A DNA stretch of 64,000 bases from Mycobacteriales bacterium (GTDB taxonomy: Bacteria > Actinomycetota > Actinomycetes > BP-191): positions 4,132 to 68,131 of the forward strand of contig DATLOQ010000123.1 in assembly GCA_035536235.1 (NCBI GenBank), read 5' to 3'. The notes under the pieces were generated by a model. That model saw only the letters and a program-made list of their open reading frames with translations. It did not search any database and had not been told where the DNA came from. Made by a program: the position numbers and the translations under genes. This document shows, piece by piece, positions 5,546 through 18,635 of this stretch; the first letter of the stretch is position 1; each line of letters begins with the position of its first letter.

Positions 5546-6316
5546 TCACCCTCTCCGGCGGGCCGACGCGACCAGGTGGATGCCGATCGACTCGCCCTCG
5601 CGCTCGCGCGAGAGGGCCACCTCGGCATCCACCAGAGAGGCAAGCGACGAGGCATCCTCGCGCAGCGCGCGCTCAACGGCTTCGCGGCTCAGCACCGTCC
5701 GTGGTCGGATCCACTCCACGGCGAACCCGCTGTCATCGAGGTCGTCCGCCAGCTCTTCCGGCCAGAAGCACCGGGTGATCGAGCCGTCCTCGTGCGGGAT
5801 CAGCACGACATCGGCGGACGGCACGTCGGCGAGCTCGGCCCAGCGGGACTGCTCAGCCAGCCGTGACAGGCCCAGCCCCAGGGAGTCGACGCAGAGCAGC
5901 AGTCGGCCGCCCGGCGCCAGCATGCGGCGGATCGAGAGCAGCACATCCTCAGCGGCGAGGTGTGCCGACAGCGCTCCGGACTCCGCCACCACGCCATCGA
6001 CGCAGCCGTCGGCGATCCACCGCGTCGGAAAGCTCTCCGCGATGACGGGCGAGACGTCGGGTCGGGCCGGCTCCGCGATCAGCGTCGACTTCCTCGGGTC
6101 GTCGACAAGGCGGATCACATCGTGTCCCTCGGCCGCCATGTTCGCCGAGTGGCGGCCGGGCCCGCGGCTCAGGTCGAGGATGCGTGACCGTCGGTGTGGC
6201 AGCCACTCGTGCAGCTGATGACGGGCGACCTCGTCGTAGAAGGTCCAGAAGGGGGACGGGTCCTTCCCGGGAAGTAGAGGTCCGTCTCGACCACGCCGCT
6301 CGAAGTCTGGGAGCAC
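5546..6316 (-). CDS. Class I SAM-dependent methyltransferase
   Basis: ILDLSRGPG motif I and LLLCVDS motif. The start is uncertain; it was trimmed from 6373 to an internal GTG to avoid overlapping the divergent hydrolase start. Confidence 0.65.
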   Translation of the reverse strand: MLPDFERRGRDGPLLPGKDPSPFWTFYDEVARHQLHEWLPHRRSRILDLSRGPGRHSANMAAEGHDVIRLVDDPRKSTLIAEPARPDVSPVIAESFPTRWIADGCVDGVVAESGALSAHLAAEDVLLSIRRMLAPGGRLLLCVDSLGLGLSRLAEQSRWAELADVPSADVVLIPHEDGSITRCFWPEELADDLDDSGFAVEWIRPRTVLSREAVERALREDASSLASLVDAEVALSREREGESIGIHLVASARRRG

Positions 6317-7673: not shown

Positions 7674-7895
7674 GCGCCCATCCTAGGCACAGAAGGCAGG
7701 CCGGCCCTGGGGGCTGGAATGCGTCGGTGGCTCCTCAGCGTTGGGCCGATCATGGTTGGCCCTCCGCGAGCCGTCTCCTCTTCCCAGTGCCGCGTGCCCG
7801 CTGGCCGCTGCGGCACCCGGGGTGCGCATGGCAGCCGGCGGCGCGGTGCCGTAGCCTCGGCGGTCCCGGCGACCTCCGTCGCCCCCCGCTTGGAG

Positions 7896-8504
7896 GTGAG
7901 TCGCGTCGAAGAGACGCTCGAGCAGCGCAGTGACCGGTTCGAGCGCACGGCCCTGCCGTTCCTCGACCAGCTCTACTCAGCCGCCCTTCGGCTGACTCGC
8001 AACCCTGCCGACGCCGAAGATCTGGTGCAGGAGACCTTCGTCAAGGCCTTCGCTGCATTCCACCAGTTCGAGGAGGGCACCAACCTCAAGGCGTGGCTCT
8101 ACCGCATCCTGACCAATACCTACATCAACATCTATCGCAAGAAGCAGCGTGAGCCCCAGCAGCACGGTGTCGACGAGATCGAGGACTGGTCGCTGGCCCG
8201 TGCGGCCGAGCACACTGCTGCGGGGCTGCCGAGCGCGGAGACCCAAGCTCTCGACCACCTGCCGGACAGCGACGTCAAGGACGCGCTGGCGGCGCTGCCC
8301 GATGACTTCCGGATGGCGGTCTACTACGCCGACATCGAGGGCTTCTCGTACAAGGAGATTGCCGAGATCATGGGGACTCCGATCGGTACGGTGATGTCGC
8401 GCCTGCACCGAGGGCGCAAGTCGTTGCAGAAGGCGCTCTACGCCTATGCGCTTGACCGCGGCGTCATCCGCCCACCGACGCAGGCTGAGGGGGCTCAGGC
8501 ATGA
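7896..8504 (+). CDS. ECF sigma factor, SigH/SigR/SigE-type
   Basis: Region 2 motif [14 protein letters not shown]...[25 protein letters not shown] and region 4 HTH ([25 protein letters not shown]). Its stop overlaps the start of the downstream ZAS anti-sigma gene. The N-terminal 300 aa of ORF 6996..8504 is antisense to ideR and was excluded. Confidence 0.85.
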
Positions 8505-8782
8505 GCTGCGGCACACCGCATGATGGCTGCGCCAAGGTCATCGAGGCCGTCTACCTCTACCTCGATGGGGAAATGGACGACGCTGACTGCGCCGAGGTGC
8601 GCTCCCACCTCGAAGACTGCGTCCCATGCTTGCGCGAGTACGGCCTGGAAGAGGACTTCAAACGGCTGGTGGCCCGCAAGTGCGGGTGCGACCCGGCTCC
8701 CGAGGAGCTCCGGTCTCGGGTGCTGACCCGGCTCCGCGAAGTGCGGGTCGAGCTGGCGACAGTGGAGTTCCGCACCGACTGA
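8501..8782 (+). CDS. Zinc-binding anti-sigma factor (ZAS family, RsrA/RshA-like)
   Basis: HLEDCVPC (HxxxCxxC) ZAS motif plus an upstream Cys. 93 aa. Translationally coupled to the sigma gene. Confidence 0.8.
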
Positions 8783-9964: not shown

Positions 9965-10609
9965 TCAGAGGCGAAGGCGCCGGTTGAGTCCGTCCAGGAC
10001 TGCCCGGACGACAGCATCAGCCTGGTCGCCGCGCACCAGGGCTGAGCCGGTGAGCATGCTCTCGCCGTCGGCGGTGAGCAGCTGGATCACGCAGATCGCC
10101 ACCTCGCGCCCGCCCACGTGGCTGACCTGCGCATGCTCCAGGTCCGCGGCCGCAAGCGGGAACAGCTGCATGGCAGCCGCCAGGGTGGCCCGACCGATCA
10201 GTCGAATGCGGCTGCTCGGCGTGGCCGGCGCCGTTGCTGTCCCGTCGTAGAGCTGACCATTGCAGGCGAGGGTGACAGTGGCCGAGGCGTGCAGGCCGGC
10301 GGTGTTGGCGGTCACGCCGGCGACGAGCACCCGGACGGTGCTGGTGCCCTGGGTCTCGGCCTGGGGTGTCTCGTCATCATCGAACTGCACGATGGACACG
10401 ATGCGGTGGTCCAGCTCGAGGTCGAATTGGGCCATCGCCACTGACTGGATGTCGCGCACCAGAGCCTTGGGGCTCTTCCCCCGGTCGCTCAGGACGTGGA
10501 TCTCAGTGGGTGCTGCTGCACCGTCGGTGACGACCCGGGCAGCCTGGACACCCGGTAGTCGACCGATTGTTGCCTCGAGGTCGGGGAGCAGCCGCAGTGT
10601 GGTGACCAT
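9965..10609 (-). CDS. Hypothetical protein with apparent internal duplication
   Basis: 214 aa. Two ~90-aa halves with similar patterns (EIHVLSDRGKSPKALVRDIQSVA versus EVAICVIQLLTADGESMLTGSALVRGDQADAVV). No family recognised. Confidence 0.5.
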   Translation of the reverse strand: MVTTLRLLPDLEATIGRLPGVQAARVVTDGAAAPTEIHVLSDRGKSPKALVRDIQSVAMAQFDLELDHRIVSIVQFDDDETPQAETQGTSTVRVLVAGVTANTAGLHASATVTLACNGQLYDGTATAPATPSSRIRLIGRATLAAAMQLFPLAAADLEHAQVSHVGGREVAICVIQLLTADGESMLTGSALVRGDQADAVVRAVLDGLNRRLRL

Positions 10610-10617
10610 GGGTGTGG

Positions 10618-11070
10618 TTAGCCGAGGTGCGCGAGCCGGGCAGCAACGGCGCTGCGGCGAATCTCGAGCAGATCGTCAGTCGCTGCGTCCGGGGACGGTG
10701 CGGGCGCTGCCGGCGGCTGTCCGACAGGGGTGTCCGCGGGCAGCGGCGCAGCGTCGGCGAAGTCGATCTCGGCCGGGCCGTGGCTGCGCCACGCATCGCT
10801 GCCTCGGTCCGTCGCGGCCTGCGCCTCTGCCTGAGCCCGGGCCATCACGTCGAGAACGGCTGGCAGGGCAGAAGCGGCGTACTGCTTGGTGTTGTGCACC
10901 GACTCCCGTTGCCAGAAGCGCAGCGCCCGGGCGGTCATCTCGTCGAGCCCGGCAGCGGCGAGCACCGCGTCGAACGTGGTCGTCGCCGGGTCGTCGAACC
11001 CGGCCATGACCTCCCAGGCGAGCCCCGCACGGTCCACGGTCATGCGAAGTGTCCATTCGTCAGCCAGCAT
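10618..11070 (-). CDS. Hypothetical protein
   Basis: ORF 10618..11175. The likely start is the internal Met MLADEWTLRM. Ala/Pro-rich acidic C-terminus. No family recognised. Confidence 0.4.
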   Translation of the reverse strand: MLADEWTLRMTVDRAGLAWEVMAGFDDPATTTFDAVLAAAGLDEMTARALRFWQRESVHNTKQYAASALPAVLDVMARAQAEAQAATDRGSDAWRSHGPAEIDFADAAPLPADTPVGQPPAAPAPSPDAATDDLLEIRRSAVAARLAHLG

Positions 11071-11377
11071 CCGACGATGCAGGCTAGCGCCGGGGGCGAC
11101 CCGAACCGGGGATCTCTCCACGACAAAACTGGGTGTTGCCAGAGTGACTGATGTGCGCCACGATGCTGCGAGCAACGGACAAAGCGGGCAAAGGTGGGGG
11201 GCGCACGGCCCTGCACTCAGCGTGCGGGATTCCGCGGCGTGGCACGTGACAACTACAGACTGAGTGGTCGGGACCGGCAGTGTCGGCTAGCTCTTCTTCG
11301 CATCACGAGCGGAGCGGATTATGCGTGAGCCCTTAGCGGTGCTCGCGACATAAATCTGCGAAGGGGGCGATAGCCCA

Positions 11378-11455
11378 ATGAAGAAGATCGCTGCTGTGTT
11401 CGGTGGACTGACTGCACTATTCATGTCCGCAGGCGCTGGCTGGAACTGGGGTTAG
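11378..11455 (+). CDS. Candidate 25-aa hydrophobic micro-ORF (MKKIAAVFGGLTALFMSAGAGWNWG)
   Basis: ATG preceded by AAGGGGG about 10 nt upstream. The local GC is low, and codon GC3 is atypically low for this genome. It sits in the 338-bp leader of the HD-GYP operon. Confidence 0.25.
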   Translation: MKKIAAVFGGLTALFMSAGAGWNWG

Positions 11456-11512: not shown

Positions 11513-12850
11513 ATGCGGGAGCTTCCCCCTCGCGCTCGCGCCTACTTCTGGGCGGTCTGCGCGCTCGCGGGCGCAGTGCTCGTCGGCTCCGGCTTCGCTC
11601 TTCGCGACGCCACGGCGGCGGACCTCGCTCAGGTCGCGATCCTGCTGCTCCTCCTCGGTGCGGTGAACAGCTTCTCCACCCGCACCTCGGCCGACATCAC
11701 CGTGTCGATCGGCTTCATCGTCTGCTTGGCGTCGGTGGTGCTTCTCGGGCCCTCCGGTGCCGCGATCGTGGCCGCTGCCGGCGGCACGACTGGCCCCCTG
11801 CTCTACAAGCGGGTGTTCAACTCAGCGCAGTACGTCCTCGCGTCGTGGATGTCAGCGATCGGGTGGGCGCTCGTGCTCGGCGCGGCGCGCCTGGGCAACC
11901 AGCCCGAGTGGCGGGTCCTCGTCGCTGCGTCCTTCGCGACAGTGGTCTTCTGCTTGGTCAACTCACTTCTCGTGGCCTGCATCATCTCGCTGACGACCTC
12001 CATCTCCGTCGCGCGGGTGTGGTCGGGCACGCTGTCCTGGGGCACCTTCACTTATCTCGGTTATGGCCTGCTCGGCGTCCTCATGGCGCAGCTGTATCGC
12101 AACGTAGGGCCCGCGACATCGATCTTGTTCCTGGCGCCGTTGCTCGTGGCGCGGAGGGCGTTCGCCAACTACGCCGAGCTGCGCAATGCCTACGACGGCA
12201 CGGTGTCTGCACTCGTTCAGGCCGTCGAGACCAAGGACTACTACACGCGCGGCCACTCCGAGCGGGTCGCCCGGGTCACCGAGATGGTGGCCCGCGAGTG
12301 GGGCATGCGGGAGGACCGGGTCCAAGTCATCAAGATCGCCGGAATGCTGCACGACGTCGGCAAGCTGGGGGTGCCGACCCGGGTGCTTCAGAAGCAGGGC
12401 AAGCTCAGCCAACTCGAGTTCGAGGCGATCAAGATTCATCCGCTGCGGGGCTTCGAGATGCTGAGCGAGATCGACTTCCTGAGCGAGGCGATCAGCGGCG
12501 TCTACCACCACCACGAGCGGATGGATGGCCGTGGCTATCCGCTGGGGCTGGTCGGTGAGGAGATTCCGGAGTTCGCTCGCATCATCATGGTGGCCGACGC
12601 CTTCGACTCGATGACGTCCACCCGGGCCTACCGCCAGGCGAAGTCTGTGGCGGACGCCGTCATCGAGCTGCGCCGCTGCCAGGGCGACCAGTTCGACGAG
12701 AACGTCGTCGACTGCCTGGTCGCTGGTATCGACAAGCACGGGTGGTCACCGCACCCCGAGGACTTCTTCGGGGAGCAGGTCGACCGCGACGGCCGGCCGA
12801 TGGTCCAGGCCGCCGCGGCCGGGGCGGAGGGCGTCCGTGAAGAGGACTGA
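11513..12850 (+). CDS. 7TM membrane receptor fused to HD-GYP phosphodiesterase domain (c-di-GMP PDE family)
   Basis: About 7 predicted TM helices in the first 215 aa. HD motif MLHDVGK and a complete HHERMDGRGYP (HD-GYP) signature. Confidence 0.8.
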   Translation: MRELPPRARAYFWAVCALAGAVLVGSGFALRDATAADLAQVAILLLLLGAVNSFSTRTSADITVSIGFIVCLASVVLLGPSGAAIVAAAGGTTGPLLYKRVFNSAQYVLASWMSAIGWALVLGAARLGNQPEWRVLVAASFATVVFCLVNSLLVACIISLTTSISVARVWSGTLSWGTFTYLGYGLLGVLMAQLYRNVGPATSILFLAPLLVARRAFANYAELRNAYDGTVSALVQAVETKDYYTRGHSERVARVTEMVAREWGMREDRVQVIKIAGMLHDVGKLGVPTRVLQKQGKLSQLEFEAIKIHPLRGFEMLSEIDFLSEAISGVYHHHERMDGRGYPLGLVGEEIPEFARIIMVADAFDSMTSTRAYRQAKSVADAVIELRRCQGDQFDENVVDCLVAGIDKHGWSPHPEDFFGEQVDRDGRPMVQAAAAGAEGVREED

Positions 12851-14126
12851 GCCCGTCGTCGTACGGCGACTGCTGCTCGTCCTGGCCGTCGGGGTCGCCG
12901 CCGCTGCCGCTGCCGCCTCGATCATCGGCGCGCGCGAGATGAGCTCCCCGGCCGACTACCAAGCGGCGATCGCCTTCTGTTGTCTCGTCGCCGTAGGGGA
13001 GCTGCTGCGGGTCAACCTCCCGGGCGACCGTGACGCGGCCCCGATCGGCGGAGCCGCGGTCATCGGCTACGCGCTGCTCGTGCGAGTAGACGGCGAGGTC
13101 GCGCGGCATGCTGCCGCCGACGTCATCACGGTGGCAGCGGCCGGCTGCTTTCTCACCGCAATAGTCCACCTGCTGGCCCAGCGTGATCCTCGTCCGGTTG
13201 ACATTGCTGCGCGGATTCTTGGCGCCGCCACCACCGCCTGGCTCTTCCGCCCGTGGCTCGCCGACCATCCGGCGGAGGCGCTGGGTCGGCCGTCGACGTC
13301 GCTTGTGGTCGCCATGGCCATCGCCACTCTCGCCGGTGGGGCGGTCGGCACGACTGTGGCCGCGTGCGAACGCGCCGCGCGCTTGCGAGCGCCCTTCATC
13401 GCGACGCTGCGCAACGAGGTGCAGGCGCAGCTGGGCCTCGGCGCCGCCATGGCGTCGACCGGAATCCTGCTGGCGCTTTCGGTGCCCAAGCTGGGCTTGT
13501 GGGCGCTGCTCGTATTCATGGGCCCGCTGCTCGTGACGCAGTTCTCATTCCGGCGCTATGCGTCGATCTCGGCGACGTACCGGCAGACGATCCGTGCCTT
13601 GTCCCGCGTGACGGAGGTGAGCGGGCACGTCGAGACAGGTCACAGCCGTCGGGTGATGAACCTCTCGGTGGCCATGGGGCGCGAGTTCGGCATGACGGAG
13701 TCGGAGCTGCTCGACCTCGAGTACGCCGCGCTGATGCACGACATCGGCCAGCTCTCGCTCACCGACCCCATCCCCCGTGGGTCGACTCTCACCGTCGCAC
13801 CGTCAGAGCGTCGCCGCATCGCCGAGCTCGGCGCGGCCGTCATCCGCTCTACGGGCACCATGGACCGGGTCGCGCACATCGTCGGCTGTCAGGCCAACGC
13901 CTATCGCAAGATGCGCGAGACCGTCGACGTCGAGGTGCCGTTGCCGTCTCGCATCGTGAAGACCGCGTCGGCGTACGACGACCTCATCACCGCAAGCCGC
14001 GTTGTCCGCGGAAAGCGCGCGTCGTGGGACGCCCTGGAGCGGCTGCGTCTGGGGATGGCCTACGAGTACGACCCGCGGGTGATCGAAGCCCTGACCAAAG
14101 TCCTGCGGCGCAGCGGCGACCTCTGA
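12837..14126 (+). CDS. 7TM membrane protein with degenerate HD(-GYP)-like domain (paralog of the upstream gene)
   Basis: Same architecture. The HD motif LMHDIGQ is present, but no GYP motif and no HHE.D metal-site equivalents were recognised. It overlaps the upstream gene by 14 nt. Confidence 0.75.
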   Translation: MKRTEPVVVRRLLLVLAVGVAAAAAAASIIGAREMSSPADYQAAIAFCCLVAVGELLRVNLPGDRDAAPIGGAAVIGYALLVRVDGEVARHAAADVITVAAAGCFLTAIVHLLAQRDPRPVDIAARILGAATTAWLFRPWLADHPAEALGRPSTSLVVAMAIATLAGGAVGTTVAACERAARLRAPFIATLRNEVQAQLGLGAAMASTGILLALSVPKLGLWALLVFMGPLLVTQFSFRRYASISATYRQTIRALSRVTEVSGHVETGHSRRVMNLSVAMGREFGMTESELLDLEYAALMHDIGQLSLTDPIPRGSTLTVAPSERRRIAELGAAVIRSTGTMDRVAHIVGCQANAYRKMRETVDVEVPLPSRIVKTASAYDDLITASRVVRGKRASWDALERLRLGMAYEYDPRVIEALTKVLRRSGDL

Positions 14127-14179: not shown

Positions 14180-14965
14180 CTAGCCGCGAGGATCAGGGCG
14201 AGACGCCCCCCGGAACCAGGGGGCAGCGGGCTGCACGGGAGCCTGAGCACGGGTGGGGGCGTGGGCGGGCGGTGGAGCGGTGGGGACGTGGGCGTGCGCG
14301 TGCGGTGGAGCGGCTGTGGCGGGGCCGGGGGAGGCGGTGATCTGGCGGGAGCGTCGGCCAACGCCGGGCCGGATCATGGCGTTGGTGACGAGCACACCGA
14401 TGCCGGCTGCTAGGACGACGTCGCCGACCGAGACGATGTTGGAACCGCGACGCACCGGAAGAGGAGCCGGGATCACGTCGGTGAGCGGACGCAGCGCCGT
14501 GCGCCGAGTAGCGATCTCGTGCTTGGCATCCTCGCCCCGGGTGAGCGGGCTCAGGTCGACCCCGACCCTTGCGGCCGCCCACTGGGACACCGGCATCGCG
14601 CCGTTGGCCGAGACGGCGATGGCGTTGAGCAGGAATCCTGCGGCGATGAGCGGCATCCCGCGCAGGTGCCGATTGCGGAGCACGAAGGCAGTGATCAGCA
14701 AGGCTGAGAGCACGAGCCCGGTGACATAGAGCACCCGGGGGGAGGGCAGGTCGAGTGCCCCGGCGAACGCGCCGAGCGCCTGCACGCCGAGCGCCAGAAA
14801 GATGAGCGGCCACCCCGGCAGCTCCAGCACCGAGAGCCGGGTCAGGGAGCCACCGCGCGCATAGCCGATGGCGACGGCGGCGAGCACGACCAGAAGCACG
14901 ATGGGAATCTCGACCACCTCCTCCGTCCGGCGCCGTGGCTGTCGAGGGGCCTCGATAGGGTGCAC
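14180..14965 (-). CDS. Integral membrane hypothetical protein with His/Pro/Ala-rich C-terminal tail
   Basis: 5-6 hydrophobic helices. C-terminal PPHAHAHVPTAPPPAHAPT. Start uncertain; it was trimmed relative to ORF 14180..15076 because of the divergent accC-like start at 15012. Confidence 0.5.
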   Translation of the reverse strand: MHPIEAPRQPRRRTEEVVEIPIVLLVVLAAVAIGYARGGSLTRLSVLELPGWPLIFLALGVQALGAFAGALDLPSPRVLYVTGLVLSALLITAFVLRNRHLRGMPLIAAGFLLNAIAVSANGAMPVSQWAAARVGVDLSPLTRGEDAKHEIATRRTALRPLTDVIPAPLPVRRGSNIVSVGDVVLAAGIGVLVTNAMIRPGVGRRSRQITASPGPATAAPPHAHAHVPTAPPPAHAPTRAQAPVQPAAPWFRGASRPDPRG

Positions 14966-15011
14966 CGGCGTCCGCTGCAGCCACGGTAGCTCCCGGGCGG
15001 CGTAGGAGGGT

Positions 15012-16358
15012 GTGACGTTGTTCGAGACGATTTTGGTGGCCAATCGCGGCGAGATCGCCCGCCGGGTGATCCGCACCGCTCAGCAGCTGGGCGTGAAAGC
15101 GGTCGCGGTCTACTCCGAAGCCGACGCCAAGTCGCTGCATGTGCGCGACGCCGACGATGCAGTGCTCCTGGGACCGGCCCCGCCCGCGGAGTCCTACCTC
15201 GACGCCGCCAAGGTGATCGAGGCGGCTCGCCAGAGCGGGGCGCAGGCGATCCACCCGGGGTACGGCTTCCTCTCTGAGAATGCGAGCTTCGCTGCCGCTG
15301 TCGCGGCGGCCGGCCTCGTCTGGATCGGCCCGTCGCCGGAGTGCATCTCGGTGATGGGCGACAAGATCAACGCCCGCAATCTCATGGAAGCAGCCGGGGT
15401 CCCGGTGGCGTCCGGCACGCCCACCCCGCTCTCCGACGTCGAGGAGGCCGTCGCCGAAGGCGCGCGCATCGGCTACCCGCTCATGGTGAAGGCCACAGCG
15501 GGCGGCGGCGGCATCGGGATGAGCGTGGCGTACGACGAGGCCTCGCTGCGCACGTCCTTCGAGACCGCGCGGACTCGCGCAGAGCGGTTCTTCGGCAACC
15601 CCGCGATTCTGCTCGAGCGCTACCTCCCTCGCGCGCGGCACGTTGAGGTGCAGATCCTCGGCTTGGCCGACGGTCGGGTGGTCGCGCTGGGTGAGCGCGA
15701 CTGCTCGGTGCAGCGTCGCCACCAGAAGGTCCTCGAGGAGACACCGTCCCCCGGTGTGGACGGGCCGCTGCGGGCGCGGATGCTTGCTGCGGCGGTCCGG
15801 GCCGGCGAAGCCGTGGGATACCGCAATGCGGGCACGGTCGAGTGCCTCGTTGCCGACGGTGACTTCGTCTTCCTCGAGATGAACACCCGGCTTCAGGTCG
15901 AGCATCCGATCACCGAGCTGGTCACCGGGCTCGACTTGGTGGCGGAGCAGCTACGGGTCGCCGCTGACCTGCCACCGGGCTTCGACCCCGACGCGATCAC
16001 GACAAGCGGGCATGCCATCGAGATGCGCGTCTACGCCGAGGACCCCCTGCGCTTCCTACCCGGACCGGGGGAGATCAACGTGTGGCGCGAGCCGAGCGGC
16101 AACGGCATCCGCGTGGACTCCGGTTACGGCGAGGGGGACACGGTCACGCCGTACTACGACCCCCTGATGGCCAAGCTCTGTGTCCACGCGGACGGTCGTG
16201 CCGCCGCGCTGGACAAGGCCCGTGCGGCGGTGGAGGGATTCGAGATCGTCGGCCCGAAGAACAACCTGCCCTTCTTCCTCGAGCTGCTCGCCAACGAGGA
16301 GTTCGCGAGCGGCGACTACGACACCCGTCTCGTCGAGCGGATGCGGGCAAAGCAGTGA
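15012..16358 (+). CDS. Biotin carboxylase (ATP-grasp), stand-alone subunit
   Basis: ILVANRGEIA. Complete ATP-grasp and biotin carboxylase N-terminal, central and C-terminal domains. No fused BCCP. GTG start at 15012 with an AGGAGGG Shine-Dalgarno. Confidence 0.9.
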   Translation: MTLFETILVANRGEIARRVIRTAQQLGVKAVAVYSEADAKSLHVRDADDAVLLGPAPPAESYLDAAKVIEAARQSGAQAIHPGYGFLSENASFAAAVAAAGLVWIGPSPECISVMGDKINARNLMEAAGVPVASGTPTPLSDVEEAVAEGARIGYPLMVKATAGGGGIGMSVAYDEASLRTSFETARTRAERFFGNPAILLERYLPRARHVEVQILGLADGRVVALGERDCSVQRRHQKVLEETPSPGVDGPLRARMLAAAVRAGEAVGYRNAGTVECLVADGDFVFLEMNTRLQVEHPITELVTGLDLVAEQLRVAADLPPGFDPDAITTSGHAIEMRVYAEDPLRFLPGPGEINVWREPSGNGIRVDSGYGEGDTVTPYYDPLMAKLCVHADGRAAALDKARAAVEGFEIVGPKNNLPFFLELLANEEFASGDYDTRLVERMRAKQ

Positions 16359-17137
16359 GCGAGTCAGCGTCGAGTGATCTCGCCGTCCGCCGGGACGGCG
16401 CGGTGCTGCGGCTGCACATCGACCGGGAGGCCAAGCGCAACGCGCTGAGCGGGGAGGTGTTGCGGGGCATGCTCGACGCGCTCGCTGCGGTCGGCGATGC
16501 GCGAGTCGTCGTCGTCACCAGCGCGGGAGACCGGGTCTTCTGCTCTGGGGCCGACCTCGTGCAGATGGCCCCCGACGCGACGGGGCTCGAGGTGCACGAG
16601 AGCCGCGGCCTGCTCCGCGAGGTGATCCTGGCCATCGGCCACTGCCCAGTGCCAGTGGTCGCCCAGGTGCAGGGCCTGTGCCTCGCCGGGGGAGTCGGCC
16701 TGATCCTGGCGTGTGACCTGGTCGTTGCGGCTGAGAACGCAGCCTTCGGTCTCCCGGAGGTCGATCTCGGCCTCTGGCCCTTCATGGTGTCCGCGCTGTT
16801 GGGCCGCCACGTCAGTCCGAAGAGGGCGATGGAGATGATGCTCTCGGCTCGCCGGGTCCCGGCGTCGGAAGCGCTCGACATGGGCTTGGTCTCTCGCGTG
16901 GTCCCGACCTCGTCGCTGCGCGACGAGGCCACCGCGCTCGCTGCCGAGCTCGCCGCCAAGCCTCCTGTCGCTGTCCGGCTGGGCAAGGCGGCGTTTCGGG
17001 CCGCACTCGAGTCCTCGCTGCCGGCCGCGCTGGACGCGATGCAGGCACAGCTGTCGTTGCTGGCGACGACGCAGGATGCTGCCGAGGGGGTCGGCGCCTT
17101 CCTCGCCAAGCGCCCGCCGGAGTGGACCGGCCGCTGA
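16355..17137 (+). CDS. Enoyl-CoA hydratase/isomerase (crotonase-fold) family protein
   Basis: Crotonase signature (VVVVTSAGDRVFCSGADL ... CLAGGVGLILACD ... GLPEVDLGLWP). GTG start overlaps the biotin carboxylase stop (GTGA). Confidence 0.8.
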   Translation: MSESASSDLAVRRDGAVLRLHIDREAKRNALSGEVLRGMLDALAAVGDARVVVVTSAGDRVFCSGADLVQMAPDATGLEVHESRGLLREVILAIGHCPVPVVAQVQGLCLAGGVGLILACDLVVAAENAAFGLPEVDLGLWPFMVSALLGRHVSPKRAMEMMLSARRVPASEALDMGLVSRVVPTSSLRDEATALAAELAAKPPVAVRLGKAAFRAALESSLPAALDAMQAQLSLLATTQDAAEGVGAFLAKRPPEWTGR

Positions 17138-17179
17138 GGCGTGGCAGGATGCCGCCACGCAGTCGACTGAGGGAGCAGC

Positions 17180-17396
17180 CGTGGCCGAGCAGGTCGTCGC
17201 CGAGATGGTGGCCAACGTCTGGAAGATCGTCGTCGCTCAGGGGGACGACGTCGCCGAGGGCGACACGCTCCTGATCTTGGAGTCGATGAAGATGGAGATC
17301 CCGGTCATCACCGAGACTGGCGGGCGGGTCGCCGAGCTGAAGGTTGCCGAGGGCGACGTGGTCCAGGAGGGCGACGTCCTGGCGGTGATCGAGTAG
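17180..17396 (+). CDS. Biotin carboxyl carrier protein, minimal biotinyl domain (~70 aa)
   Basis: Biotinylation motif ILESMKMEIPV and the hammerhead fold pattern (GDVVQEGDVLAVIE). Exact start (GTG 17180 or ATG 17204) uncertain. Confidence 0.75.
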
Positions 17397-17555
17397 GCAA
17401 GGACCCTTCTGGCCTGAGCCGGACCGGCCGAATCTGGGCTGACAGGGGTCAAGGATTCCGCACCGCAGGCCGAGACTTCAGACGAGGGCGCTGTCTCGGT
17501 GCCCTCGGCGTGCGACACCGATGTCGTGGGCCGGCATGGGTGATCAGGAGTTCAT

Positions 17556-18635
17556 GTGGCCAGCACCATCGAGCCCTTCCTCAAGGCTCTTGTCGAGTCC
17601 GGTGGCTCCGACCTGCACTGCAAGGTGGGTTCCCCGCCGCGCGTGCGCATCGACGGCCGGCTGCGCAAGCTGCAGACCCGCGACCTCACCGGCGCGGACA
17701 CCGAGGCGATGGTGGGCGAGGTGCTCCGCGGTGACCTCGTGGAGAGCTTCCGCCGTACCAACGAGGCTGACTTCGCCTACTCCGTGCGCGGGGTGGGTCG
17801 TTTCCGGGTCAACGCGTTTCGCTCCCGGGGGTCGGCCGGCCTGGTCTTCCGCAAGGTCTCGGTCGGCGCGATCCCGCTTCGGGATCTCGGCTTGCCCCCG
17901 GTGCTCGAGTCACTCTCTCTGGAGCCCCGCGGCCTCGTGTTGGTGACCGGTCCGACGGGCGCCGGGAAGACCACCACCCTCGCCGGCATGATCGACCACA
18001 TCAACGAGCACCGCGAGGTGCACGTCGTCACGATCGAGGACCCGATCGAGGTCCTGCACTTCGACAAGATGGCGATGATCAACCAGCGTGAGGTCCGCGT
18101 CGACACTGAGGACTTCCAGGTCGCGCTGCGTGCCGCGATGCGGCAGGACCCCGATGTGATCCTGGTGGGCGAGATGCGCGACATGGAGACGGTGAAGGCC
18201 GCGCTTGCCGCGGCCGAGACCGGCCACTTCGTGATGTCGACACTGCACACCACCGACGCGGCGGAGACCATCAACCGGGTCATCGACTTCTTCCCCCCGC
18301 ACGAGCAGAAGCAGGTGCGGCTGGCCCTCGCGGGATCTCTCCGCGGCATCATCTGCCAGCGTCTGGTGCCCCGCGCCGACGGGGAGGGCCGCTGCGTCGC
18401 GATGGAGGTGGCCATCAACACGGGCCGCATCGCGGACGCCATCGCCGACCCGGACAAGACCTCCACGATTCCGGGACTCGTGGCTGAAGGCACCTTCTAC
18501 GGGATGCAGTCGTTCGACCAGCACCTCGTCGCGCTCATCCGCGACGGGGTGGTGTCCCTCGACGACGCGATGGCTGCCTCCACCAGCCCGCACGATCTCA
18601 CCGTCGAGCTGCGCCGGCTCGGCCTCGTCGCCTGA
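17556..18635 (+). CDS. pilT: PilT-family type IV pilus retraction ATPase homolog
   Basis: Walker A GPTGAGKTT, Asp box, Walker B DVILVGEMRD, His box TLHT, and a PilT-specific C-terminal region. 359 aa. Confidence 0.8.
   Translation: MASTIEPFLKALVESGGSDLHCKVGSPPRVRIDGRLRKLQTRDLTGADTEAMVGEVLRGDLVESFRRTNEADFAYSVRGVGRFRVNAFRSRGSAGLVFRKVSVGAIPLRDLGLPPVLESLSLEPRGLVLVTGPTGAGKTTTLAGMIDHINEHREVHVVTIEDPIEVLHFDKMAMINQREVRVDTEDFQVALRAAMRQDPDVILVGEMRDMETVKAALAAAETGHFVMSTLHTTDAAETINRVIDFFPPHEQKQVRLALAGSLRGIICQRLVPRADGEGRCVAMEVAINTGRIADAIADPDKTSTIPGLVAEGTFYGMQSFDQHLVALIRDGVVSLDDAMAASTSPHDLTVELRRLGLVA

Follow-up and report, generated by a model that had tools for sequence, protein, structure and literature searches.

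Introduction

The closest described counterpart of the two genes analysed here is the hdgA-hdgB pair of Streptomyces venezuelae, in which hdgA (vnz24090) encodes a transmembrane protein with a MASE9 membrane domain and an HD-GYP domain and hdgB (vnz24095) encodes a transmembrane protein with a degenerate HD-GYP domain devoid of the GYP motif. The two genes were reported to be adjacent and probably to form an operon, and HdgB was already called degenerate at that time (Al-Bassam et al. 2018, PMC6205966); both proteins were detected solely in the membrane fraction (PMC6205966). MASE9 was defined on proteins of the HdgA type, HdgA being the named example and the sole member studied, and the activity of S. 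venezuelae HdgA has been reported solely as a personal communication cited by Galperin & Chou. Here we analyse a pair of tandem, overlapping open reading frames (ORFs), ORF1 and ORF2, in a 64,000-nucleotide (nt) stretch of DNA, hereafter the window, from a Mycobacteriales bacterium (contig DATLOQ010000123.1 of assembly GCA_035536235.1, positions 4,132 to 68,131, forward strand). An earlier reading of this stretch, made from its letters without database searches (the sequence-only reading), had proposed that the pair encodes an enzyme and a pseudo-enzyme forming a heterodimeric sensor.

PA2572 (YN-GYP) of Pseudomonas aeruginosa is a catalytically inactive HD-GYP regulator. HnoD and ECA3548 are likewise catalytically inactive HD-GYP regulators (Galperin & Chou). 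HD-GYP domains dimerise via the stalk helices that precede them, as in PmGH and DvhD (PMC13090378).

Three observations on the hdgA-hdgB pair are new in this analysis, namely that hdgA and hdgB are neighbours in 78 of the 80 best actinomycete loci, that HdgB is conserved beyond HdgA, and that the two proteins occur naturally fused in two diverged lineages. These points support a shared complex of HdgA and HdgB without proving one.

Results and Discussion

Identity of the gene pair

ORF1 and ORF2 (Table 1) are identical to annotated proteins of a metagenome-assembled genome (MAG) named 'Mycobacteriales bacterium', and judged from their sequences they are paralogs. BLASTP aligned them with 25% identity over 288 amino acids (aa) (E=4e-21), and alignment of the ORF1-family and ORF2-family profiles with hhalign gave a probability of 99.7% over residues 111-414 of ORF1 and 130-429 of ORF2, a span that takes in the last three membrane helices and the linker helix as well as the entire HD domain; likeness between the two families is greatest in this linker, or stalk, helix. 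The tandem, overlapping paralogs of the sequence-only reading are thus real, and the overlap amounts to 14 nt. The GTG of ORF2 is the earliest possible start in its frame, and close homologs of ORF2 are annotated with the identical N-terminus. Because a Shine-Dalgarno sequence (GGAGG) lies inside the 3' end of ORF1, translational coupling of ORF2 to ORF1 is plausible, as had been supposed from the overlap, and the overlap and the internal Shine-Dalgarno sequence together suggest that the genes are also co-transcribed. Neither promoter-like nor terminator-like sites were found between or after the two ORFs, and around the pair no Rfam family matched and no unusual RNA fold was seen (z=-0.24).

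Table 1. Features of the locus with their positions in the window
Feature	Position	Strand	Description
ORF1, assigned to hdgA	11513..12850	+	ATG start, 445 aa; MASE9-type membrane domain and intact HD-GYP domain
ORF1 membrane domain	11513..12178	+	residues 1-222; 7 helices, beta-hairpin after helix 2
ORF1 HD-GYP domain	12212..12706	+	residues 234-398; HD 12350-12355, HHERMDGRGYP 12509-12541
ORF1/ORF2 junction	12826..12850	+	GGAGG 12826-12830, 6-nt spacer, GTG 12837, TGA 12848-12850
ORF2, assigned to hdgB	12837..14126	+	GTG start, 429 aa; paralogous membrane domain and degenerate HD-GYP-derived domain
ORF2 membrane domain	12837..13556	+	residues 1-240; GELxRxxLPGDRxxxPxG across helix 2 and hairpin
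ORF2 degenerate HD domain	13629..14081	+	residues 265-415; HD 13737-13742 in HDIGQ, GYP loop deleted
SigR/SigH-type promoter-like site	7716-7742	+	GGAAT-N19-GTT, upstream of the ECF sigma gene
ECF sigma gene and zf-HC2 anti-sigma gene	about 7900..8782	+	sigma gene ends at 8504; anti-sigma gene 8501-8782; Pfam
Two ORFs between epimerase gene and hdgA	9965-10609; 10618-11175	-	214 aa; 185 aa
Candidate small ORF upstream of hdgA	11378..11455	+	25 aa, MKKIAAVFGGLTALFMSAGAGWNWG, 57 nt before ORF1
DUF5317 membrane-protein gene	14180..15076	-	Pfam E=1.5e-26; convergent, 54 nt from the hdgB stop
Biotin-related and PilT-type genes	15012-18635	+	biotin carboxylase, enoyl-CoA hydratase, small biotinyl carrier protein and PilT-type ATPase genes

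Orthology was approached through the proteins of a Streptomyces violaceusniger-group chromosome (CP126066.1, L085) and the SCO5216/5217/5218 numbering of S. coelicolor rather than through the S. venezuelae sequences. In S. coelicolor SCO5216 is SigR, SCO5217 is RsrA and SCO5218 is an HD-GYP protein, and the S. violaceusniger-group chromosome encodes, in this order, an extracytoplasmic function (ECF) sigma factor, a zf-HC2 anti-sigma factor, a 483-aa HD_5 protein and a protein that we call P0410. Full-length identity between the HD_5 protein and ORF1 is 38% (E=1e-91), and the HD_5 protein carries the RxxS variant, a variant reported for HdgA (Galperin & Chou). P0410 shares 43% identity with ORF2 over 403 aa (E=6e-80) and belongs to an ORF2-family cluster made up of Streptomyces violaceusniger-group proteins. 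The Streptomyces hdgA-hdgB pair and the pair of the window agree in gene order, strand and domain architectures, in the missing GYP of HdgB, and in their site downstream of the ECF sigma and zf-HC2 anti-sigma genes (sigR-rsrA in S. coelicolor), and we regard ORF1 and ORF2 as almost certainly the orthologs of hdgA and hdgB. They differ in that the host of the window is an uncultured Mycobacteriales-type MAG, in that an epimerase gene and two genes lacking a Pfam match stand between the anti-sigma gene and hdgA in the window, and in that the hairpin motif LPGDRDAAP of ORF2 is interrupted by an insertion in its Streptomyces counterpart. In addition, the genes that overlap by 14 nt in the window are 867 nt apart at the Streptomyces locus, and the overlap is therefore lineage-specific. 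A protein search of a plasmid collection returned no Streptomyces copy, its match lying only on an unannotated Nonomuraea chromosome. The arrangement, described as poorly characterised in the sequence-only reading, is indeed so but is not new, since it has already been named and published in Streptomyces as hdgA/hdgB, and the present locus is one more ortholog.

Catalytic and substrate-binding residues of the two proteins

ORF1 matched HD_5, the HD-GYP model of Pfam (PF13487), with E=1e-37 and 130 bits against a cutoff of 27.2; its matches in the PDB include PmGH (4mcw, E=1.3e-36) and PA4781, and those obtained with Foldseek include PmGH, PA4781 and DvhD. We read the positions of metal ligands and of contacts to cyclic di-GMP (c-di-GMP) from an alignment in which 146 HdgA-like and 158 HdgB-like sequences were set against the PmGH fragment (Table 2), taking as contacts the Lys of HDxGK, the Tyr of GYP and the motif RxY[K/R], as defined by Galperin & Chou. 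All seven ligands of the two-metal site are present in ORF1 (H248, H280, D281, H309, H333, H334 and D362), as are the contacts to c-di-GMP (K284, Y342 and R371-A-Y-R374), and the motif HHERMDGRGYP, which spans H333-P343, is as intact as the sequence-only reading had held it to be. The kept residues are conserved in 145-146 of the 146 sequences of the HdgA family, with the exception of the K317 position. A Tyr occupies the position of PmGH E185, and ORF1 therefore falls into the two-metal class, as does PA4781, in which the Glu binding a third metal is likewise missing. ORF1 is accordingly predicted to be an HD-GYP phosphodiesterase of the two-metal class that hydrolyses c-di-GMP. It shares with PmGH and PA4781 (4r8z) the fold and all the catalytic and substrate-binding motifs, and differs from them in having as input a MASE9-type membrane domain in place of GAF or REC; ORF2 shares with them the fold and three ligands only.

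Table 2. Fate of the PmGH metal ligands and c-di-GMP contacts in the two families
PmGH position	Role	ORF1 and HdgA family	ORF2 and HdgB family
E185	third-metal ligand	Tyr in family, 146/146	Val or Thr in family
H189	metal ligand	H248, kept	H269, kept, 158/158
H221, D222	metal ligands (HD)	H280, D281, kept	H301, D302, kept, 158/158
K225	c-di-GMP contact	K284, kept	Gln in family, 158/158
H250	metal ligand	H309, kept	gap in MAFFT, Ala in BLASTP
H276	metal ligand	H333, kept	Gln or Ser in family
H277	metal ligand	H334, kept	Ala, Cys or Ser in family
Y285, GYP loop	c-di-GMP contact	G341-Y342-P343, kept	deleted in family
D305	metal ligand	D362, kept	Asn or Ser in family, 156/158
R314	c-di-GMP contact	R371, kept	Ser in family, 126/158
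K317	c-di-GMP contact	R374; family Arg 143, Ser 3	mostly absent

In the case of ORF2, HD_5 still matched well above its cutoff (E=4.4e-12, 46.5 bits vs 27.2), as it did in all 82 family members searched, and Foldseek related the domain to the HD domains of DvhD, PgpH and PmGH. However, only three of the seven ligands of the two-metal site are left (H269, H301 and D302), and a 10-residue deletion in the HdgB family, seen with hhalign, takes out exactly GxGYPxGLxG. The GYP motif was found in none of 78 ORF2 orthologs, and HHE[RK]x[DNS]GxGYP was found in 77 of their 78 upstream partners. The four canonical contacts to c-di-GMP (K225, Y285, R314 and K317 in PmGH numbering) are all lost in HdgB. 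The description of ORF2 as keeping its HD dipeptide with neither GYP nor equivalents of HHE.D was hence correct, and the reading of the pair as an enzyme with a degenerate paralog, rather than as a plain duplication, withstood the count of metal ligands in the PmGH alignment. Because four of the seven metal ligands, the GYP loop and the c-di-GMP contacts are lost, we predict that ORF2 neither hydrolyses c-di-GMP nor serves as a canonical receptor for it, and very probably HdgB does not act catalytically on this molecule.

The manner in which HdgB degenerated distinguishes it from other HD-GYP derivatives. DvhD of Desulfovibrio vulgaris (9rbz; PMC13090378), the best Foldseek match of the models of both ORFs, is likewise a membrane protein whose HD-GYP domain is catalytically dead and dimerises through stalk helices, but it degenerated in the opposite way, having lost HD (now SQ) and HH while keeping the Tyr of the GYP loop that clamps c-di-GMP (PMC13090378). 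HdgB keeps HD, its GYP loop is deleted and its binding residues are replaced, and we rejected on these grounds the possibility that HdgB is a canonical c-di-GMP receptor like DvhD. PA2572, HnoD and ECA3548 are, like HdgB, non-enzymatic HD-GYP derivatives, and they act via protein-protein interactions; unlike HdgB, they are soluble, linked to REC or PilZ, and have no active tandem paralog sharing a membrane domain.

The predicted loss of catalysis has not been accompanied by a relaxation of selection on HdgB. In 63 of 66 loci the HdgB ortholog was closer to the protein of the window than the HdgA ortholog was (49.9% vs 46.5% identity), and the family has invariant motifs of its own in both the membrane and the cytosolic domains (GELxRxxLPGDRxxxPxG, LEYAALMHDIGQLSL, QAxPYR and ERLRLGMAYEYDP) as well as dozens of invariant positions. 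On this sequence evidence HdgB is a selected pseudoenzyme under strong purifying selection with no sign of decay, because it is more strongly conserved than HdgA and has invariant motifs of its own, and it is probably an ancient paralog in which catalysis was lost.

Membrane domains

AlphaFold2 (AF2) models of ORF1 (pLDDT 89.9) and ORF2 (pLDDT 93.1, pTM 0.86) show a common layout of two helices, a short beta-hairpin and then five helices, with one further short helix in ORF2, and in both models the last membrane helix extends into a helix of 40-45 residues that enters the HD domain. The helix count was taken from the AF2 helices together with hydropathy, a crude Kyte-Doolittle threshold scan having undercounted. 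ORF1 scored 24.0 bits (E=4.3e-5) against Pfam MASE9 (PF20972), just below the cutoff of 24.3, and most of its close homologs have a precomputed match to this family. No match to Pfam MASE9 was obtained in the ORF2 family (0/82 members at E<=0.01). Nevertheless, the membrane domain of ORF2 is a divergent relative of the MASE9-like domain of ORF1, because the last three helices align in hhalign and the AF2 layout is the same. Residues F47, G54, E55, L61, P62, R65 and P69 of this domain are invariant or nearly so in the ORF2 family. The sequence-only reading had labelled both proteins as 7TM-receptor::HD-GYP proteins. The count of about seven transmembrane helices agrees with the AF2 models, but the receptor family was wrong, and we rejected this label: neither ORF matched the 7TMR family of Pfam at E<=1, and the family indicated instead is MASE9, matched by most homologs of ORF1 and, just short of the cutoff, by ORF1 itself.

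Comparison of the models with known structures pointed to the S components of energy-coupling factor (ECF) transporters. Residues 1-200 of ORF1 (11513-12112) matched FolT (5d0y_A; TMt 0.67, rmsd 3.5), with further matches to RibU (0.66), ThiT (0.61) and BioY (0.60), residues 1-220 of ORF2 (12837-13496) matched TmRibU (TMt 0.67), and ORF1 gave a weak match to the NCBIfam model ECF_S_folT (E=0.0085). Both membrane domains therefore superpose on S components (FolT, RibU, BioY and ThiT; TMt 0.59-0.67), and this match to integral membrane proteins supports, with the AF2 models, the membrane topology proposed earlier. The likeness is one of fold only, the sequence signal being marginal. Unlike ECF transporters, the pair has no T or A components encoded nearby, and unlike S components the ORFs carry an additional helix and a fused cytosolic domain. 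The fold, as modelled, hints at the binding of a ligand within the membrane. We found no mention of the likeness to ECF S components in a paper on MASE9.

Conservation and natural fusion of the pair

A scan of one genome per species yielded at least 555 relatives of ORF2, and we counted loci among the best 80, which come from Frankiaceae, Mycobacteriales MAGs, Sporichthyaceae, Jiangellales, Motilibacteraceae and many Streptosporangiales; searching with the ORF2-family profile gave, at E<=1e-30, 419 representatives of clusters formed at 50% identity. An ortholog of ORF1 lies directly upstream on the same strand in 78 of these 80 loci, across several actinomycete orders, which answers the question, raised by the sequence-only reading, of whether the pairing is conserved in related genomes. 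The two exceptions are a contig end and a locus, L073, that truly lacks hdgA. Among the 78 orthologous pairs a 4-nt overlap of start and stop is possible in 49 and a 17-nt overlap in 5.

The strongest new evidence in support of a shared complex comes from natural HdgA::HdgB fusions in two diverged lineages. In P0290 (950 aa) an HdgA-like part at residues 37-468 (31% identity to ORF1, E=3.5e-44) is followed by an HdgB-like part at residues 672-907 (44.5% to ORF2, E=4.4e-60), and in P0304/P0393 (979 aa) the corresponding parts lie at residues 23-471 (31% to ORF1, E=9e-45) and 723-969 (46% to ORF2, E=3e-62). We take the fusions to be real because P0290 and P0304/P0393 are colinear over their full length at 44% identity, because each is present on several independent assemblies, and because P0393 stands at the same locus (EPSP-synthase / SRAP / Abhydrolase_11 / sigma / anti-sigma) as the Streptomyces hdgAB genes. 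The fusion loci (L082-L084; gene 6001-8940 in L082) belong to high-GC (~71%) metagenomic actinobacteria, and the HdgA half of the fusions keeps HHERxDGxGYP. Since HdgA and HdgB are joined in one chain, the N-terminus of HdgB should be cytoplasmic.

Divergence of the two proteins is likewise correlated, and more tightly than that of either with neighbouring genes: pairwise distances of HdgA and HdgB gave r=0.989, and partial r was 0.956 or 0.908 when neighbouring genes were controlled for, compared with a control partial r of 0.85, in a sample of 43 loci that is dominated by one clade and hence weak.

HdgB as a proposed regulatory subunit and alternative explanations

Taking these results together, the explanation that we favour, with a probability of roughly 0.5, is that HdgB is a regulatory or sensory subunit of the HdgA membrane complex. 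HdgA would be the membrane-anchored (MASE9-type) HD-GYP enzyme that hydrolyses c-di-GMP, and HdgB, residing with it in one membrane complex, would sense or regulate without catalysing. Pairing would involve the last transmembrane helix together with the stalk helix, the known dimerisation element of HD-GYP proteins, and HdgB would set the activity of HdgA in answer to a signal sensed in the membrane; in the lineage of the window, the overlap and the internal Shine-Dalgarno sequence would couple translation of the two genes. The activity of HdgA in the organism of the window, the inactivity of HdgB, their physical association and the direction of regulation are all points that we infer. That the two proteins act in one complex at all is about an even bet, and the heterodimeric sensor of the sequence-only reading stands to the same extent: the fusions, the adjacency and the correlated divergence speak for it, and the self-interaction of HdgB, the genomes with hdgB only and the unequal expression of the genes speak against it. 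A more ambitious reading would join all the elements into an obligate asymmetric HdgA-HdgB complex, actinomycete-wide and tied to sigR-rsrA, often with a Trp-rich leader, whose ECF S-like domains bind a membrane-soluble small molecule and whose HdgB has neither a catalytic nor a canonical c-di-GMP site, so as to constitute a new class of HD-GYP derivatives; we hold this to be unlikely.

Several observations weigh against a shared complex with HdgB as its regulator. Deletion of hdgA or of hdgB gave no phenotype on standard medium, and specifically none in development (PMC6205966; 2026 paper), a two-hybrid study of 2026 reported self-interaction of HdgB and reported no contact between HdgA and HdgB, and we found no direct test of their interaction in the literature. 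More Streptomyces strains have an ortholog of HdgB (79) than of HdgA (76), and in S. venezuelae hdgB transcripts rise in sporulation and hdgA is among the least expressed genes (PMC6205966), an inequality that argues against strict 1:1 co-expression. To these are added the hdgB gene without hdgA at L073, the 867 nt between the called hdgA stop and hdgB start on CP126066.1, and the weakness of the sample of correlated distances. The HdgA half of the fusions, moreover, no longer has the first of its metal-binding His residues, the Lys beside HD (K225) or RxxK, and lineages with so degraded an HdgA half may not report on the relationship between enzyme and regulator.

It is possible, though in our view doubtful, that HdgB is instead an independent homodimeric membrane sensor or scaffold with partners other than HdgA, the adjacency of the genes resulting from tandem duplication and shared regulation. 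The bacterial two-hybrid (BACTH) self-interaction with no HdgA contact reported, the solitary hdgB at L073, the slight excess of Streptomyces strains with HdgB and an expression profile in S. venezuelae unlike that of hdgA would all fit such a sensor, as would the invariant motifs that HdgB has of its own in its membrane and cytosolic domains and the convergent DUF5317 membrane-protein gene beside hdgB in a subset of loci; it has to contend, however, with genes that stay adjacent in 78 of 80 loci across orders and frequently overlap in start and stop, with fusions to HdgA conserved in two diverged lineages, and with a likeness between the HdgA and HdgB families that is strongest precisely in the stalk, the dimerisation element. 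We consider it improbable that HdgB is a one-metal hydrolase of HD type with a substrate different from c-di-GMP, such as pGpG or some other nucleotide. The invariance of H269, H301 and D302, which recall the H...HD...D ligands of classical HD hydrolases at three of four positions, the retention in 155 of 158 sequences of the second Asp of DxxD (PmGH D308; ORF2 D381), the nearly invariant E266 and D364, which might substitute as ligands, and the match of the ORF2 fold to the HD domain of PgpH would agree with such an enzyme, but 156 of 158 sequences have Asn or Ser in place of the Asp that would complete a classical HD site (PmGH D305), Gln invariably replaces the Lys beside HD, the loop forming the nucleotide pocket is deleted, and the retained HD residues could be purely structural. 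That ORF2 is a duplicate in decay, an incipient pseudogene, or that both genes of a plain duplication encode active enzymes, is scarcely credible: the low identity between ORF1 and ORF2 (25%) and the loss of motifs are all that speaks for it, whereas the gene is full-length and intact in hundreds of genomes (419 cluster representatives), HdgB is conserved beyond HdgA with dozens of invariant positions, and the same substitutions are fixed across the family. Both pseudogene decay and a second active HD-GYP enzyme were ruled out by these family-wide fixed substitutions.

Whichever its partners, HdgB constitutes a large, strongly conserved, actinomycete-wide family of predicted pseudoenzymes. Conserved adjacency and the fusions lead to a testable hypothesis, namely one complex with HdgB as the regulatory subunit, and this one-complex model, if true, could explain why single deletions were uninformative on standard medium. 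It would also add control by a pseudoenzyme to HD-GYP signalling, a field in which knowledge lags far behind that on EAL and GGDEF signalling.

Genomic context of the pair

The pair has an ECF sigma gene upstream in 65 of the 80 loci and an anti-sigma gene upstream in 66, and it is accompanied by a gene for biotin carboxyl carrier protein in 64 and by a biotin carboxylase gene in 54. In the window the sigma and anti-sigma genes are of the SigR/RsrA (SigH/RshA) type, the anti-sigma gene being overlapped by the sigma gene and carrying HxxxCxxC. The pattern GGAAT-N19-GTT is not enriched in the window (4 matches vs 4.3 expected), and no SigR-type promoter was found upstream of hdgA, the sole match nearby being that which precedes the sigma gene. 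The two genes and the promoter-like site fit an autoregulated module like SigR-RsrA or SigH-RshA, as far as their sequences allow.

Downstream of the pair, a homolog of the DUF5317 gene is present in 21 of the 80 loci, and in 15 of the 19 with a mapped hdgB stop it lies within ~160 nt on the opposite strand; at L073 it overlaps the 3' end of hdgB. We treat this gene as context, and its membership of the system is only conjectural. The biotin-related genes that follow are syntenic with the pair in 54-64 of the 80 loci, and the PilT gene in 24. Between the epimerase gene and hdgA, the 214-aa and 185-aa ORFs of the minus strand gave no match to Pfam, and homologs of the 214-aa protein occupy the same position in 23 of the 80 loci and are present in L073.

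The candidate small ORF upstream of hdgA could encode a Trp-rich peptide that acts as a leader or a regulator. In 17 of 67 loci a related peptide with a W-x-W end is encoded 104-211 nt ahead of hdgA, compared with 1 of 67 in a reverse-complement control. Loci with such small ORFs are L002, L008-L015, L018, L020, L021, L024, L055 and L079, and upstream peptides of the MKKIVSAVEQFLQAGANWRW type occur in other actinomycete lineages. At one of the fusion-protein loci, L082, a 53-aa ORF (5691-5852) carries two TWWWHPKP repeats.

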